Source: a virus
Lineage: Duplodnaviria; Heunggongvirae; Uroviricota; Caudoviricetes
Length of the DNA: 8,825 nt
IMG/VR virus record: IMGVR_UViG_2693429621_000011
Reading direction: 5' to 3' (one strand)
The translations under genes and the position numbers were made by a program. The notes below the pieces were generated by a model, which saw nothing but the letters and a program-made list of their open reading frames with translations, did no database searches and was not told the DNA's origin. How positions within the stretch are numbered: the first letter of the stretch is position 1; each line of letters begins with the position of its first letter. This document shows, piece after piece, positions 4,220 through 8,825 of this stretch.

Positions 4220-5335
4220 ATGAAAATAACGACAGTCGACGTATGCATAATTTGCGGAATTTTTCCGTTGCTGATTTTGCCCCAATTGCCTGGGACATTA
4301 GCCCTTGCGTTTCTGACTCTCTTCGCCTGCGTACTGGCATTTATACCTGTTAAAACCGTCCGTTATATCGCGCTGACGTTGCTGTTTTTCGTTTGGGGCA
4401 TATTATCAGCAAAGCAAATTTTGTGGGCAGGAGAAACCTTAACTGGCGCGACGCAGGATGCAATTGTTGAGATCACTGCTACTGACGGCATGACCACTCA
4501 TTACGGTCAAATTACTTATCTACAAGGTCGACGTATATTCCCTGCGCCAGGCCTTGTGCTGTATGGCGAATATCTTCCGCAAGCGGTTTGTGCCGGACAA
4601 CTGTGGTCAATGAAACTCAAAGTTCGTGCCGTTCATGGTCAACTTAATGATGGCGGCTTTGATAGCCAGCGTTATGCCATTGCCCAGCATCAGCCGCTCA
4701 CCGGCCGCTTTCTGCAGGCAAGTCTTATTGAACCGAATTGTAGCCTGCGTGCACAGTATCTGGCGTCACTACAAACAACGCTGCAACCCTATCCGTGGAA
4801 TGCGGTTATTCTTGGTTTAGGTATGGGGGAACGGTTATCCGTCCCCAAAGAAATCAAAAATATCATGCGCGATACTGGAACGGCGCATTTAATGGCGATA
4901 TCGGGATTGCACATCGCTTTTGCGGTGTTGCTGGCTGCCGGACTCATTCGCAGTGGACAAATTTTTCTGCCTGGGCGCTGGATCCACTGGCAAATACCAT
5001 TAATTGGTGGGATCTGCTGTGCTGCTTTTTATGCCTGGTTGACGGGAATGCAACCTCCTGCATTGCGTACCGTGGTGGCGCTTGCTACGTGGGGAATGCT
5101 TAAGTTAAGTGGGCGACAGTGGAGTGGCTGGGATGTATGGATATGTTGTCTGGCGGCAATTTTGCTGATGGATCCTGTTGCCATTCTCTCGCAAAGTTTA
5201 TGGCTCTCTGCCGCTGCGGTCGCGGCACTGATTTTTTGGTATCAGTGGTTTCCCTGTCCTGAGTGGCAACTTGAGATAGCCGCAGAAGTCCACCAGCGAA
5301 TCGCCCTCGCGTTTTATCACCAGAGCTTCTTCTGA
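4220..5335 (+). CDS. ycaI: ComEC-family inner-membrane protein YcaI, N-terminal ~370 codons only; reading frame ends prematurely where foreign DNA begins (probable disrupted gene or pseudogene fragment)
   Basis: ORF 4142..5335; likely start is ATG 4220 with SD GGGAGGAG upstream (MKITTVDVCIICGIFPLLIL...); multiple hydrophobic helices; full-length E. coli YcaI is about twice this length; its last ~20 codons overlap the 3' end of the opposite-strand primase-like gene. Confidence 0.7.
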   Translation: MKITTVDVCIICGIFPLLILPQLPGTLALAFLTLFACVLAFIPVKTVRYIALTLLFFVWGILSAKQILWAGETLTGATQDAIVEITATDGMTTHYGQITYLQGRRIFPAPGLVLYGEYLPQAVCAGQLWSMKLKVRAVHGQLNDGGFDSQRYAIAQHQPLTGRFLQASLIEPNCSLRAQYLASLQTTLQPYPWNAVILGLGMGERLSVPKEIKNIMRDTGTAHLMAISGLHIAFAVLLAAGLIRSGQIFLPGRWIHWQIPLIGGICCAAFYAWLTGMQPPALRTVVALATWGMLKLSGRQWSGWDVWICCLAAILLMDPVAILSQSLWLSAAAVAALIFWYQWFPCPEWQLEIAAEVHQRIALAFYHQSFF

Positions 5336-6793
5336 TTTCTGCTGCTCATACAGCAGGCGTTTAGCTTCGTCCTGGTCAGAAAAACGAGTAAGCAGGTGGC
5401 GAATCACAACCGCCAGCTCTCCTTCTATTTTTTCTGCCAGCATGGGGTCGCGTTCGTTCTCCGGTACAACTTCCGAAAAATTGAATATCACCCGACGACG
5501 TGAGATCCCCCCGCTGCGGTCACTGAATGACATGGCGTTATTGTTAACCGCCAGCACTACTGCCGGAATACGCGTTGAGTAGGGGGCTTTGTGTTTCGGG
5601 TCAATTGCCACCTTGTCACCGCCTGTAATGGCCTTAATCCCTGCCCCATCACCAGCGTAGCGGGTCATATCCGGCATGATAATCAGCGAAAAGCCAACCA
5701 CTAACGCGCGTTCCCTTGCATCTTCCAGCGCCTTCATGCTTGCCGATACTGTGTTGGCCTTACCCGCCAGCATGGTGCAAATCTCCGCCATCACGCTTTT
5801 ACCACTTCCCCCTGGACCTGTTACCTCAATGAATAACTGCCAGTCGTACCGGTTCGCCAGCACCATGAATAATACAGCCAGTACGCGATCCGCCTTGCGG
5901 TCATTCTCAGCCACCGAACGGCGTAACCACTTCCAGAAATTCGGCGCATGTGTTGCCAGCGTTTCCCCCTCTGCTGGTGGGCTGAAAGGTAATTCACTGG
6001 CAATTAACAACCAGTCGTTTTTGTTATGCTCCCGAAAATTACCTGTTCTGGTATCAAATACCCCGTTACTGAATCCAATCAGGTTACGGGCTGTATTCCC
6101 CATTACAGGCAAACTTAACTTCATGGTATCGACCGCCGATTTAATGGCGTTCTGCGAATAGCTGATCTCCGCATCAATGAAAATCTGTGCCATAGCTCGC
6201 TGTAATTCTTTATCCTGTACTGGCTCCCATACAACGCCGTTGTAATGGTGAACAGTGTCAGAGTCAGCATGAATCGCCAGTTCACCGCCATAATGTGCCA
6301 GGAGAACTTCGCCGCGTTGACTTGCTCCCATCTGGTTAAGCGCCAGTGATGAAGCGTTATCGTCTTTTACCCGCTCTTTTTTCTTTACAGGCAGTTCAAC
6401 TACCTTTTTCTTTTCCGCCTGCTCTGCCCGTTCACGTTCCAGATATTCGCGCCAGTTCTCCCGTTTCTGGCTGTGCATTCCTTCAGGGTAATAATCAGCA
6501 TCCCTGACACCTGCCGCTGCCAGTTTCTGCCCGATGGTATTAACAAGCCCCGGACGCAATAACCCCGCCTGGTAGAGACGCACCCGATAGCGTCCGTCCG
6601 GTACGATTTGCAGCTTATCCAGTTCGGCAAGTTGTTGTTCTCCAAGCCAGACAGGAGGCACGCTGTCGCCAGCCAGTCGCCCGTCCTGTTCCTGCCACTG
6701 CTTCGCATGTGCCCACGCATCATTACCCGCAAAAATGATGACTTCCGTCATTTTGTCACGCGGCTGGTGTTTTAAATTTGGCGCTTTTTTCAT
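5198..6793 (-). CDS. Phage/plasmid primase-helicase-like replication protein (D5-N-like region plus P4-type primase C-terminal NTPase domain, Walker A GPGGSGKS), ~531 aa
   Basis: ORF 5198..6808; likely start is ATG at 6793-6791 (SD GGAGAG ~7 nt upstream) overlapping the stop of the upstream gene as ATGA; Walker A motif TGPGGSGKS and downstream hydrophobic strand LVVGFSLIIMPD typical of SF3/P4-alpha-type NTPases; the last ~27 codons read antisense through ycaI-derived sequence. Confidence 0.75.
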   Translation of the reverse strand: MKKAPNLKHQPRDKMTEVIIFAGNDAWAHAKQWQEQDGRLAGDSVPPVWLGEQQLAELDKLQIVPDGRYRVRLYQAGLLRPGLVNTIGQKLAAAGVRDADYYPEGMHSQKRENWREYLERERAEQAEKKKVVELPVKKKERVKDDNASSLALNQMGASQRGEVLLAHYGGELAIHADSDTVHHYNGVVWEPVQDKELQRAMAQIFIDAEISYSQNAIKSAVDTMKLSLPVMGNTARNLIGFSNGVFDTRTGNFREHNKNDWLLIASELPFSPPAEGETLATHAPNFWKWLRRSVAENDRKADRVLAVLFMVLANRYDWQLFIEVTGPGGSGKSVMAEICTMLAGKANTVSASMKALEDARERALVVGFSLIIMPDMTRYAGDGAGIKAITGGDKVAIDPKHKAPYSTRIPAVVLAVNNNAMSFSDRSGGISRRRVIFNFSEVVPENERDPMLAEKIEGELAVVIRHLLTRFSDQDEAKRLLYEQQKSEEALVIKREGDSLVDFCGYLKLPLRTGKPLIPKNQCRDRSGREP

Positions 6794-7089
6794 TTCTGCT
6801 CTCTCCACGCGGCAATCATGTTTTTCAGTTCCTGTAGTTTTTTATCAACATCCATACATGACACATGGTTATTTCTGGAAAGCGGGATTTCCCGCCTGAA
6901 TCTGCTAATAAAGATCTCCACGTTCAGCGAACTATGAAATGAATAGCCATCACGAATAAAATACACACGGTCAAACATCAGTTCTTTTACCGTTACTCTG
7001 TTACCGTTCTTATCCAGATAAATAGCGCCGGGGATAATTTTGGGGTGTGCATAACCGCTGGCAGTCAAGCCAGATAAATACGTTCTCAT
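6790..7089 (-). CDS. Hypothetical protein, 99 aa, second gene of the leftward operon
   Basis: ORF with ATG start 6 nt after the stop of the upstream 106-aa gene; its TGA stop overlaps the ATG of the primase-like gene (ATGA coupling); no recognisable motif. Confidence 0.55.
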   Translation of the reverse strand: MRTYLSGLTASGYAHPKIIPGAIYLDKNGNRVTVKELMFDRVYFIRDGYSFHSSLNVEIFISRFRREIPLSRNNHVSCMDVDKKLQELKNMIAAWREQK

Positions 7090-7095
7090 GATTAT

Positions 7096-7416
7096 TTATC
7101 TCAGATTTGAATCAGTATTCGCTTTCTCTATGGCATTTAATGCATCTGTGGCATTTTCAATGGTGCACCGTAACGAAATATCAAACTGCCCAAGCATTGC
7201 CAGTAACAAGCCAATATTACCCATGTCAATGCGCATAGCCTTTTCGTCATATTCCTCATTTTCTGACGCATGCCACATCAGGCTACCAATTGACGCAACA
7301 GCCATTGATATATTGTCAGTAGCCCCATCCGCAGCGGAATAAACCTTTTTAGCAATATCATGCTCACAGTTAAAATGCGGATTAATCAGGTACTGGTAAT
7401 TGGTCATGTCAGGCAT
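7096..7416 (-). CDS. Hypothetical protein, 106 aa, first long gene of the leftward operon
   Basis: ORF 7096..7458; best start is ATG 7416-7414 preceded by a perfect SD AGGAGG with 6-nt spacer; acidic small protein; no recognisable motif. Confidence 0.6.
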   Translation of the reverse strand: MPDMTNYQYLINPHFNCEHDIAKKVYSAADGATDNISMAVASIGSLMWHASENEEYDEKAMRIDMGNIGLLLAMLGQFDISLRCTIENATDALNAIEKANTDSNLR

Positions 7417-7606
7417 GGCACACCTCCTGACGAATACGGGCGGCGAATACAGCAACACAACCTGACGGGCAACGGTTACGCGCTTCGCGTTCCGTCCAGG
7501 CGGTTACGTGGATGATTTGAGATTCTCCGGCACTCAGGGCCAGAAAACGCCACACAAAGGCCGTTTGTGTGTGTACAAGGTGTGGTATATGATTTACGGC
7601 AACCAT
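7409..7606 (-). CDS. Candidate small leader ORF (65 aa) in the operon leader; ends 5 nt inside the start of the 106-aa gene
   Basis: ATG 7606-7604 preceded by SD GAGGAG with 5-nt spacer; stop TGA 7411-7409 overlaps the ATG at 7416-7414 of the next gene (ATGCCTGA); contains the hairpin at 7551-7571; an antisense ORF with SD-like sequence also exists, so the call is tentative. Confidence 0.3.
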   Translation of the reverse strand: MVAVNHIPHLVHTQTAFVWRFLALSAGESQIIHVTAWTEREARNRCPSGCVAVFAARIRQEVCHA

Positions 7607-7708
7607 AACGGCTCCTCGTTTACGTTGTTGGTTAGAAGCCCTGCGAGTGGTAACGACACTTGCGGGGCTTCGTCGTTTCAATTGCTGAATTGCATGTATC
7701 AGCACTTG

Positions 7709-7763
7709 TGGTATTCACATTACATTTAGGTGAATACCATTTCAAGTCTTTTTTGGTATTCAC
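7709..7763. promoter_or_regulatory. Candidate operator array / RNA switch: 10-bp motif TGGTATTCAC at 7709-7718 and 7754-7763 (direct) and its exact reverse complement GTGAATACCA at 7730-7739; overlaps a putative leftward promoter (-35 TTGAAA, 17-bp spacer, -10 TAATGT on the minus strand)
   Basis: Three exact 10-mers within 55 bp of the divergent intergenic region between the leftward replication operon and the rightward RHH gene. Confidence 0.5.
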
Positions 7764-7806
7764 TTTTGTATTACACTGCATCCCGTTATTAATGGGAGGT
7801 GCAAAC

Positions 7807-8112
7807 ATGTCCAGGAGTTCTGTTAACAATAAGTCACAGCAACTGAATGCCAGATTTCCACATGAAGTAGTGAGTGGCATTGAGGCATCCCTACAGCCAG
7901 GGGAAACTAAAGCGAATTTTATAGTTACGGCTGTACGCGGTGAGATCGCCAGGCGCCAGGCAGAAGGAAGTGGAGAAAATCCCCTTGTGTCTTCACTGGA
8001 TGCCCTAGCTAATGTCGAACAAATCGGCATCAAGGCAGCGGAGGAAATCGGGCAGCTTATCACCGTTGCACGCGAAGAACTCCAGCGCCGCAAGGCCAAA
8101 GAATCAGAATAA
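7807..8112 (+). CDS. Putative ribbon-helix-helix DNA-binding regulator (resembles YlcI/YnfO-like prophage proteins), 101 aa
   Basis: ORF 7660..8112; best start is ATG 7807 with SD GGGAGGTG 7 nt upstream; N-terminal pattern NARFPHEVVSGIEASL...ANFIVTAVRGEIARR fits a beta-strand/helix/helix (RHH) DNA-binding fold; acidic C-terminal tail. Confidence 0.6.
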   Translation: MSRSSVNNKSQQLNARFPHEVVSGIEASLQPGETKANFIVTAVRGEIARRQAEGSGENPLVSSLDALANVEQIGIKAAEEIGQLITVAREELQRRKAKESE

Positions 8113-8169
8113 TCACTATCAGCGCCGTGGTGTGAGGAACTCCGGCGCATTGCTTTACAGGCGCACACA

Positions 8170-8346
8170 ATGACCAACGAAGAATCAACCAAAAAAACAT
8201 CACCTGCACGAAAAAGACGACGCAGAAAGAAAGAGCATGAATCAGAACGATTCGCGCCGTGTTCTTTTGCCCTTGAGAAGTACCTTAAAGAATACTCATC
8301 AAAGGAGAGAGCTTCGCAGTTATGGCAACGCACTGAAACAGACTGA
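8170..8346 (+). CDS. Possible small basic protein (58 aa); the frame is ambiguous, with an alternative 50-aa ORF in the +1 frame at 8237..8389
   Basis: ATG at 8170 with Arg/Lys-rich N-terminus (KKTSPARKRRRRKK); no convincing SD; below the length cutoff of the supplied ORF track. Confidence 0.2.
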   Translation: MTNEESTKKTSPARKRRRRKKEHESERFAPCSFALEKYLKEYSSKERASQLWQRTETD

Positions 8347-8410
8347 TAGCATTGCCCACCAGCCTGATAGCGGCTATCATTGACATGCTTATGTTTAGTG
8401 TTTCCAAACT

Positions 8411-8438
8411 GGCGACCGCCCCAGGTCGCCTTTGTTTT
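8411..8438 (+). terminator. Rho-independent terminator: stem GGCGACC/GGTCGCC (8411-8417 / 8424-8430), loop GCCCCA, then TTTGTTTT
   Basis: Perfect 7-bp GC-rich stem followed by a T-run; ends the rightward RHH transcription unit just before the convergent alpA-like gene. Confidence 0.65.
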
Positions 8439-8457: not shown

Positions 8458-8667
8458 TTACACTGCCTTACCTGAATTAATGCGATCCCGGCTTTTAACC
8501 CATTCCATAACCTCGGACAGCAGCCACCCTACAGAACGACCGCCCAGATTAAGACGTGACGGAAAGCGCCCTTTTTTCTCCAGTTCGTAACGTGTAGTGC
8601 GGCACACTCCAGTTAACTTACGACATTCATCCTCACGGATTACGCGATCTTCATTTATTTCACGCAT
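8458..8667 (-). CDS. alpA: AlpA-family prophage transcriptional regulator / excisionase-like helix-turn-helix protein, ~69 aa
   Basis: ORF 8458..8754 begins with a GTG that abuts its own SD-like AAGAGG, so the internal ATG at 8667 is preferred; core VIREDECRKLTGVCRTTRYELEKKGRFPSRLNLGGRSVGWLLSEVMEWV matches the AlpA/Vis-type pattern (..TG.SR.T.Y.....G.FP....LG.R.VGW...E...W). Confidence 0.65.
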   Translation of the reverse strand: MREINEDRVIREDECRKLTGVCRTTRYELEKKGRFPSRLNLGGRSVGWLLSEVMEWVKSRDRINSGKAV

Positions 8668-8825
8668 ACAAAAACCTACATAAAAATTACGTATATAAAC
8701 TTTTCTCTTAGCTGTAGATATATGAGATCGGATATTACTTAGATTCTTTTTCACCTCTTAAATTAAAAACACAACCATGCTGGTAATGACTCCAACTTAT
8801 TGATAGTGTTTTATGTTCAGATAAT

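Follow-up and report, generated by a model that had tools for sequence, protein, structure and literature searches.

The immI region of phage P22 holds two ribbon-helix-helix (RHH) repressors, Mnt and Arc, with their operators Omnt and Oarc, the divergent promoters Pant and Pmnt and the antisense RNA sar. Other RHH proteins, such as the omega repressor of pSM19035 and CopG of pMV158, bind arrays of short repeats. [quoted passage not shown] It is required for the induction of EcCICFT073, its overexpression alone sets off replication, and the existence of a repressor in this group was called unclear (PMC6092414). The AlpA of Pseudomonas is a processive antiterminator (PMC9371919). A later survey found the genes of Gram-negative PICIs to be mostly unidirectional and mentioned only Bro-type proteins and immunity RNAs in the zone of interest here (PMC10111431). 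The YlcI/YnfO family is listed only as 'prophage-associated protein' (PMC13612085). Our literature searches on PICI with ribbon-helix-helix, EcCICFT073 with repressor, and cf-PICI AlpA with repressor found nothing further.

We analysed a DNA stretch of 8,825 nt (the window), in which a short motif is repeated three times between a small YlcI/YnfO-family gene and a divergent operon that runs from icd to a primase gene. We suggest, at a probability of about 0.72, that the repeats are operators for a YlcI/YnfO-family repressor that silences the icd-primase operon. Read in this way, the locus is a repressor-operator system of an ordinary kind that is undescribed in Gram-negative PICIs, EcCICFT073 included.

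The island and its gene context

Gram-negative PICIs are recognised by int, alpA and a P4-family primase gene in conserved order and by a size of about 10-16 kb. The satellite part of the window is a remnant of such an island, with alpA and a truncated P4-family primase gene present and int outside the window. Its features are as follows.

5198-6808, minus strand: P4-family primase gene, truncated at its 3' end
6790-7089, minus strand: DUF4222 gene
7096-7416, minus strand: ORF, its start overlapped by the Icd-like gene
7409-7606, minus strand: Icd-like gene, the first gene of the icd-primase operon
7807-8112, plus strand: YlcI/YnfO-family gene, 101 aa (NCBIfam NF041551, E 1.3e-16)
8170-8346, plus strand: ORF of 58 codons (orf58)
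8411-8430, plus strand: terminator-like hairpin with a T-run on the plus strand only, at the end of the ylcI-orf58 unit
8458-8754, minus strand: AlpA-family gene (Pfam PF05930, E 2e-16), likely true start 8667

The alpA gene is convergent with ylcI and has the same orientation as the icd-primase operon. In the annotated E. coli relatives the gene order is int - alpA - (variable) - ylcI > < icd - small ORFs - DUF4222 - primase. One relative (L001) has capsid, head-decoration and small-terminase (terS) genes after the primase and, to judge by this order, has the layout of a capsid-forming PICI. The same PICI gene layout is found next to roxA in E. coli CFT073, and we take this island, from its position, to be the model EcCICFT073.

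The left 5.3 kb of the window is presumably E. coli-type chromosome, as we recognised ycaL, cmk, rpsA, ihfB and a truncated ycaI among the ORF translations, and positions 4900-5269 were matched in every one of 5426 complete E. coli genomes by search. At about 5265-5272 the truncated ycaI (ORF to 5335) abuts the primase gene that is cut at its 3' end. This junction, near 5269, was covered in 0 of the 5426 genomes, which leaves either a remnant island or a contig that has been rearranged or is a chimera. At the other edge, homology to related islands ends at 8781, and the last 44 nt (8782-8825) match a multicopy element that occurs in a median of 6 places per genome, plasmids included; its sequence, GGTAATGACTCCAACTTATTGATAGTG..., is presumably an IS1 terminus. 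Lying just upstream of alpA, this element probably cuts off the alpA promoter and int.

Elsewhere in the window, the short sequence CTGATAGC occurs at 8343-8350 and 8364-8371, and the second copy forms the palindrome TGATAGC-G-GCTATCA with an inverted GCTATCA at 8373-8379. A related sequence, CTATCAGC, lies just past the ylcI stop codon (8116-8123). The cluster overlaps a promoter-like site at 8352-8380 found by a promoter scan, and it may hold candidate sites for another regulator, perhaps AlpA.

Repeated sites in the divergent control region

An earlier note on this DNA had pointed to a 10-bp motif present three times with its middle copy inverted, and this was confirmed. The motif TGGTATTCAC is found at 7709-7718 and 7754-7763 on the plus strand; the copy between them, at 7730-7739, is its exact reverse complement, GTGAATACCA. 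Copies 1 and 2 do form a perfect inverted repeat with an 11-bp spacer, and 14 bp separate copies 2 and 3. The distance of about 45-100 bp that had been given from the gene labelled RHH agrees with our measurement, in which the nearest end of the triplet is 44 bp and its far start 98 bp upstream of the ATG at 7807. Over all 8825 bp of the window the motif had no further exact copy, nor were near copies (at most 2 mismatches) enriched elsewhere (12 found vs 6.7 expected). In 300 dinucleotide-preserving shuffles of the whole window, a 9-mer or 10-mer that occurs thrice within 70 bp on either strand was never obtained (0/300), and such 8-mers were obtained in 7/300. The triplet is real and not a product of chance.

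When the locus was compared with its relatives, the repeat unit proved to be 11 bp long. The elements of the control region are listed below.

7565-7684, plus strand: candidate cis-antisense RNA unit, with -35 TTGTGT at 7565-7570, -10 TATGAT at 7588-7593, terminator stem at 7635-7671 and a T-rich tail
7640-7930 (approximate), no strand: type-specific cassette with the 5' leader, the sites, both putative promoters and ylcI codons 1 to about 41
7679-7708, minus strand: hairpin at the 5' end of the putative leftward transcript, arms 7679-7688 and 7699-7708
7708-7718, no strand: O1, GTGGTATTCAC, containing copy 1; overlaps the last 2 bp of the putative leftward -10 and the putative start site
7717-7745, minus strand: putative leftward promoter P_left, -35 TTGAAA at 7745-7740, 17-nt spacer, -10 TAATGT at 7722-7717
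7730-7740, no strand: O2, GTGAATACCAT, containing the inverted copy 2; sits in the putative leftward -35/-10 spacer
7753-7763, no strand: O3, TTGGTATTCAC, containing copy 3; upstream of the putative leftward -35, in the spacer/-35 area of the putative rightward promoter
7766-7776, no strand: possible degenerate O4, TTGTATTACAC, which equals GTATTCAC with a 1-nt insertion; overlaps the putative rightward -10
7769-7777, plus strand: putative rightward -10 for ylcI (TATTAC or TACACT), aligned to TATACT of the relatives

The hexamers of P_left are present as the earlier note had quoted them, TTGAAA and TAATGT with 17 bp between them on the minus strand, and the repeats overlap them. They give 8 of 12 consensus matches in the window; a consensus promoter scan of the window called neither the leftward nor the rightward proposed promoter, with P_left below its threshold. 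The -35 is conserved across all types, because in an alignment with one sequence per type the best conserved element of the control region was the near-invariant plus-strand TCAAG/TCAAT, which is the minus-strand -35 TTGAC/TTGAA. The conserved plus-strand TATACT is presumably the -10 of the regulator's own promoter. In the window, transcript starts are predicted at about 7709-7711 for the leftward and about 7783 for the rightward promoter.

The comparison covered nine E. coli loci with annotation, 73 loci from IMG/VR that have a 24-nt leader pattern in common and were gathered by an exact-pattern scan of viral contigs, the CFT073 island and four loci fetched later through new protein variants. 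A distant blastn search with 7350-8250 against the phage collection gave no match. The distance from the icd ATG to the regulator ATG was about 190-215 bp in all YlcI-type loci. The left part of the control region, with the icd SD and a stem-loop, was conserved, and the remainder fell into discrete types, each with its own 9-13-bp motif repeated 2-5 times (about 90 related loci). An automatic 9-mer motif finder mis-assigned one locus (L009) and missed a short core in another (L088), both of which were corrected by inspection. The motifs are as follows.

Type A (window): TGGTATTCAC
Type B: GGTGTGTTTCATG
Type C: GGTGTCAGCCAC, three direct copies
Type D: TGTGCGCACA
Type E: GTGAATCGCAC
Type F: GGTGTTGAACAC
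Type G: GGTGTAAGACAC
Type H: AGGTGACTTGCAC
Type I: GTGAGATA(T)ACA, five copies
EcCICFT073 (presumed, CFT073 island): GTGTGGCCCAC twice, direct, and CTGTCCCCCAC
L086: TGAATCACA, four copies

Most of the motifs have the 11-bp form GTG-N5-CAC with a type-specific centre, of which 15 exact instances were found in 12 control regions (0.16 expected; maximum 2 in 1000 shuffles). The sites occupy fixed slots that are 22-25 bp apart. Slot 1 holds a type-specific site in all related types and always lies over the edge of the putative leftward -10 and the expected start, and slot 2, conserved in all types, always fills the putative leftward -35/-10 spacer. Slot 3 is between the two putative promoters and is also occupied in types I and L086. 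Slot 4 follows directly after TATACT in types B, C, D, E, G and CFT073, and relatives have a good CTG-N5-CAC site in it. The window has perfect cores in slots 1, 2 and 3 and a degenerate copy in slot 4, and the centres of O1, O2 and O3 are 22-23 bp, or about two helical turns, apart. Types C, E and I and EcCICFT073 have sites in direct orientation. All four of the later-fetched loci had type-specific repeats in the same slots. In the control region of a Serratia-like metagenome locus (L091, 1051-1201), two repeated motifs alternate: slots 1 and 3 have GTGAAAACAA, and GTGTTGCACAC fills slots 2 and 4.

Covariation with the regulator and alternative readings

We classed the motif and the nearby genes in 63 loci and measured their agreement by the ARI, with the results below.

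Regulator, N-terminal 45 residues: ARI 1.0 (0.96 before the automatic mis-assignment of L009 was corrected)
Regulator, C-terminal part: ARI 0.0
AlpA: ARI 0.20-0.35
Integrase: ARI 0.37
Primase: ARI 0.27, with 4 motif types in one allele class
DUF4222: ARI 0.61
Icd: ARI 0.02
Leader stem-loop: ARI 0.48

The specificity of the sites follows the putative DNA-reading part of the regulator (1.0 for the N-terminus, 0.0 for the C-terminus), with the caveat that this part is physically linked to the sites. AlpA, the integrase, the primase, DUF4222 and Icd were rejected as the specificity factor, since alleles of each are common to different motif types. The ORF at 8170-8346 was also rejected, because, as seen by eye, near-identical versions of its product come after regulators that differ in type. 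For the Icd-like protein the matches were PHROGs 1743 and 6196, both annotated 'transcriptional repressor'; from its alleles, which do not covary with the motif, we consider that it is not the site-specific factor. In pairwise alignments, the window and the type-B loci were at least 85% identical on both sides and unrelated over about 7640-7930, and this suggests that the unit of exchange consists of the sites together with the N-terminal domain. Finer correspondences were seen between types. Types A and E have KSQQLNARFPH and the half-site GTGAAT in common, type G and a Klebsiella locus (L089) have KSQS(V/L)TARI and GTGTAAG..CAC in common, and the putative beta-strand is nearly the only difference between the proteins of types B and I, whose sites are unrelated.

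The N-terminal domain of YlcI (residues about 9-52) is Arc/Mnt-like in appearance and is followed by a long helix (residues 59-100). It is plausible that this domain is an RHH. Searches of YlcI against PDB chains, by single sequence and by profile, gave only insignificant, non-RHH hits, and an AF2 model of the whole protein reached a mediocre pLDDT of 74.5 and had no Foldseek match in the PDB. An hhalign comparison of the YlcI profile with a single Arc sequence placed the two in the right register at a probability of only 5%.

In about 30 loci, a second family of small proteins (about 57-63 aa, MSTPLEKRSPPYQMRLPEDF...) replaces ylcI in the same slot, which is equivalent to 7700-8112 of the window; examples are L013, L020, L028, L030, L037, L038 and L077. 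The start of the gene overlaps the putative leftward -35 (ATGTCAA). Each subtype comes with palindromic sites of its own, such as two copies of GGTAATTACC, in the putative leftward spacer and at +1. The family matches PHROG 228, 'Arc-like repressor' (E 1.5e-6); its only PDB match, Mnt, was not significant (E 0.64), and against the YlcI family hhalign gave a probability of 75% (E 2.5e-5).

These results point to the operator of an autoregulated repressor, as the earlier note had proposed, in that the motif class tracks the N-terminal domain and four new protein variants fit the layout. We propose that dimers of the YlcI-family protein would bind O1 and O2 on the same face of the DNA, flanking the -10 of P_left. 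With O2 in the -35/-10 spacer and O1 over the -10 edge and start, the bound protein would exclude RNA polymerase and thus silence the icd-DUF4222-primase (replication) operon of the PICI. Binding at O3 and at the degenerate O4 in the rightward promoter could limit the synthesis of the repressor by negative autoregulation. The long C-terminal helix of the 101-aa forms of YlcI could join the dimers, as in Mnt. Operators and DNA-binding domain would be swapped together among islands as an 'immunity' cassette. It is speculative that induction bypasses this lock, with AlpA-dependent transcripts from the co-oriented alpA reading through ylcI in antisense into the operon; on this path, the hairpin at 8411-8430 has its T-run only on the plus strand.

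It is possible, but unlikely, that these are real protein sites for some other type-specific factor, perhaps a protein of the helper phage or one that the cassette encodes without annotation. Linkage alone could yield the covariation with the regulator, binding by YlcI being our proposal, and L091 carries two different motifs in one control region, which is unexplained by a simple model of one protein and one site. However, the swapped cassette contains no other conserved ORF, the alleles of AlpA, integrase, primase, DUF4222 and Icd each occur with several motif types, and a host factor cannot account for at least 14 different motifs in one species. In addition, the sites change again where an unrelated Arc-like gene replaces ylcI.

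The earlier note had also seen an attenuator-like choice in the triplet, since in RNA copy 2 can pair with copy 1 or with copy 3. That the repeats are an RNA attenuator, in which the hairpin that forms would determine whether transcription terminates, has a very small probability. The window repeats do fold as thermodynamically real hairpins, at -19.3 kcal/mol on the plus strand (z -4.3) and -16.7 on the minus strand (z -3.9), a property of both strands that follows from the inverted orientation of the repeats. Types C, E and EcCICFT073 have direct repeats (as does type I), and their corresponding stretches of 96 nt folded no better than shuffles (z -0.24 to +0.65). The folding seen in the window was not conserved in these relatives, which suggests that the hairpin potential is a by-product of site orientation. 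The T-rich runs after each pairing are present on the plus strand, but they are explained by the -35 TTGAAA and by an A/T-rich tract between the divergent promoters, both conserved in all types. On the minus strand, the sense strand of the operon, there was no U-run after either hairpin. Copies 2 and 3 are upstream of the putative leftward start and all three copies are upstream of the putative rightward start. The attenuator reading is not supported.

Two other structures in this region may concern RNA. The hairpin at 7679-7708 would fit a start site within O1 and perhaps a role in stabilising the mRNA. An analogous type-specific inverted repeat was seen by eye just beyond slot 1 in several types, for example CACCTTGATAATCTCAAGGTG in CFT073. 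The plus-strand unit at 7565-7684 looks like a candidate cis-antisense RNA of about 80 nt that would cover the icd SD and AUG. Its 15-bp stem (7635-7671), which belongs to the conserved stem-loop, was more stable on the plus strand in 25/25 variants, where 1-6 G-U pairs correspond to A-C mismatches on the minus strand, and the T-rich tail is also on the plus strand. About 45 nt upstream of the stem, TATG(A/C)T was invariant in 30 sequence variants despite a differing icd N-terminus, and TTGTGT lies 17 nt further upstream. No Rfam family matched this candidate.

Less probable still is RNA immunity of the P4/P1 type, a likeness also drawn by the earlier note, in which the repeats would be seqA/seqC-like targets or a seqB-like part of a processed CI/C4 RNA. 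The operon opens with an Icd-like gene, a feature shared with the c4-icd-ant unit of P1, and some relatives carry C4, isrK or c4-a1b1 RNAs. Such immunity RNAs have been noted in some Gram-negative PICIs (PMC10111431), which also counts in favour of this reading. However, an Rfam scan that detected these three families in relatives found none of them in the window, even at E <= 10, and gave only chance miRNA-like hairpin matches on the repeats (gathering score for the window; E <= 10 over 7350-8250). Where such RNAs were placed in relatives, they lay downstream of icd and in no case within the region between icd and the regulator gene. The leader stem-loop is independent of motif type (ARI 0.48), the window and type C having the same one, and the motif class follows a protein domain. 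Moreover, the types with direct repeats have no complementarity at all. The likeness to P4 immunity was accordingly abandoned. The RNA matches in relatives are at L003 1252-1340, L011 2747-2935, L020 2766-3429, L030 803-988 and L038 2780-2965; where their position was located (L003 and L030), they were downstream of the first icd gene. To judge by these matches, the RNA-carrying islands have, beside the protein/operator module, an RNA immunity module of the P1/P4 type that is missing from the window.

The P4 alpha protein binds repeated octamers at ori and crr. That the sites are replication-origin iterons bound by the primase/initiator, for which their shortness, their spacing of about two turns and the nearby P4-family primase gene would speak, has next to no probability, because the motif does not follow the primase alleles (ARI 0.27, 4 motif types in one allele class), the sites overlap promoter hexamers and the PICI ori was reported downstream of pri (PMC10111431).

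Comparison with described repressor systems

We conclude that the control region is not a member of the P4/P1 RNA-immunity systems, not an attenuator and not a set of iterons. The repressor-operator reading defines a candidate protein of about 60-100 aa, exact sites in the window and in the presumed EcCICFT073, and natural orthogonal repressor/operator pairs. If true, it explains the silent replication operon, predicts cross-immunity groups among co-resident islands and offers compact orthogonal parts for synthetic circuits. If the binding fails, a perfectly covarying cassette still needs explaining. A wider and more doubtful version is that the YlcI/YnfO mini-proteins and their Arc-like replacements are unrecognised master repressors of Gram-negative PICIs, EcCICFT073 too, with well over a dozen cassette specificities. 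On this tentative version they would act together with the antisense RNA of about 80 nt, and induction would occur by read-through of an AlpA-loaded, termination-resistant polymerase and not by inactivation of the repressor.

The CI and c4 RNA immunity of P4 and P1 resembles our locus in that a satellite or prophage controls an operon that starts with icd-like genes, but the window has no such RNA and its repeats track a protein domain, not an RNA. The Stl/Rpr repressors of Gram-positive PICIs (PMC6092414) occupy the same position, between the integration and replication modules, and have a divergent control region, a presumed role in silencing the island and many allelic specificities. In contrast, the Stl repressors are large, have an HTH and are relieved by proteins of the helper phage, whereas here an Arc-like protein of about 60-100 aa would be involved, its gene points toward alpA, and induction in the Gram-negative group needs the activator AlpA.

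The omega and CopG proteins offer a parallel, as the short repeated units that their dimers bind may be direct or inverted, and a comparable tolerance would explain why the orientation of the sites differs between types in our islands. The units differ, since contiguous 7-bp heptads are used there and 11-bp units with a centre spacing of 22-25 bp here, and the proteins are unrelated in sequence to YlcI.

A likeness in arrangement may be drawn to P22 immI and to the exchange of immunity in lambdoid phages. As in immI, a small repressor gene is divergent from the operon that it would control, autoregulation would act through the shared control region, and the putative operators occupy the start site and the space between -35 and -10. 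Mnt has a C-terminal helical segment for oligomerisation added to an N-terminal RHH domain, a build that the 101-aa forms of YlcI would share. P22 also has sar, a short antisense RNA that covers the ribosome-binding site of the gene under control, and the candidate antisense RNA at icd would be its counterpart. The two systems differ in that no sequence homology is detectable between them at standard thresholds, that an antirepressor is controlled in P22 and a satellite replication module here, and that a single operator of 17-21 bp is used in P22, whereas three or four separate 11-bp sites at a two-turn spacing are present here. Finally, the islands have many interchangeable specificities, and in the exchange of putative operators and DNA-binding domain as a cassette they would resemble the immunity regions of lambdoid phages.
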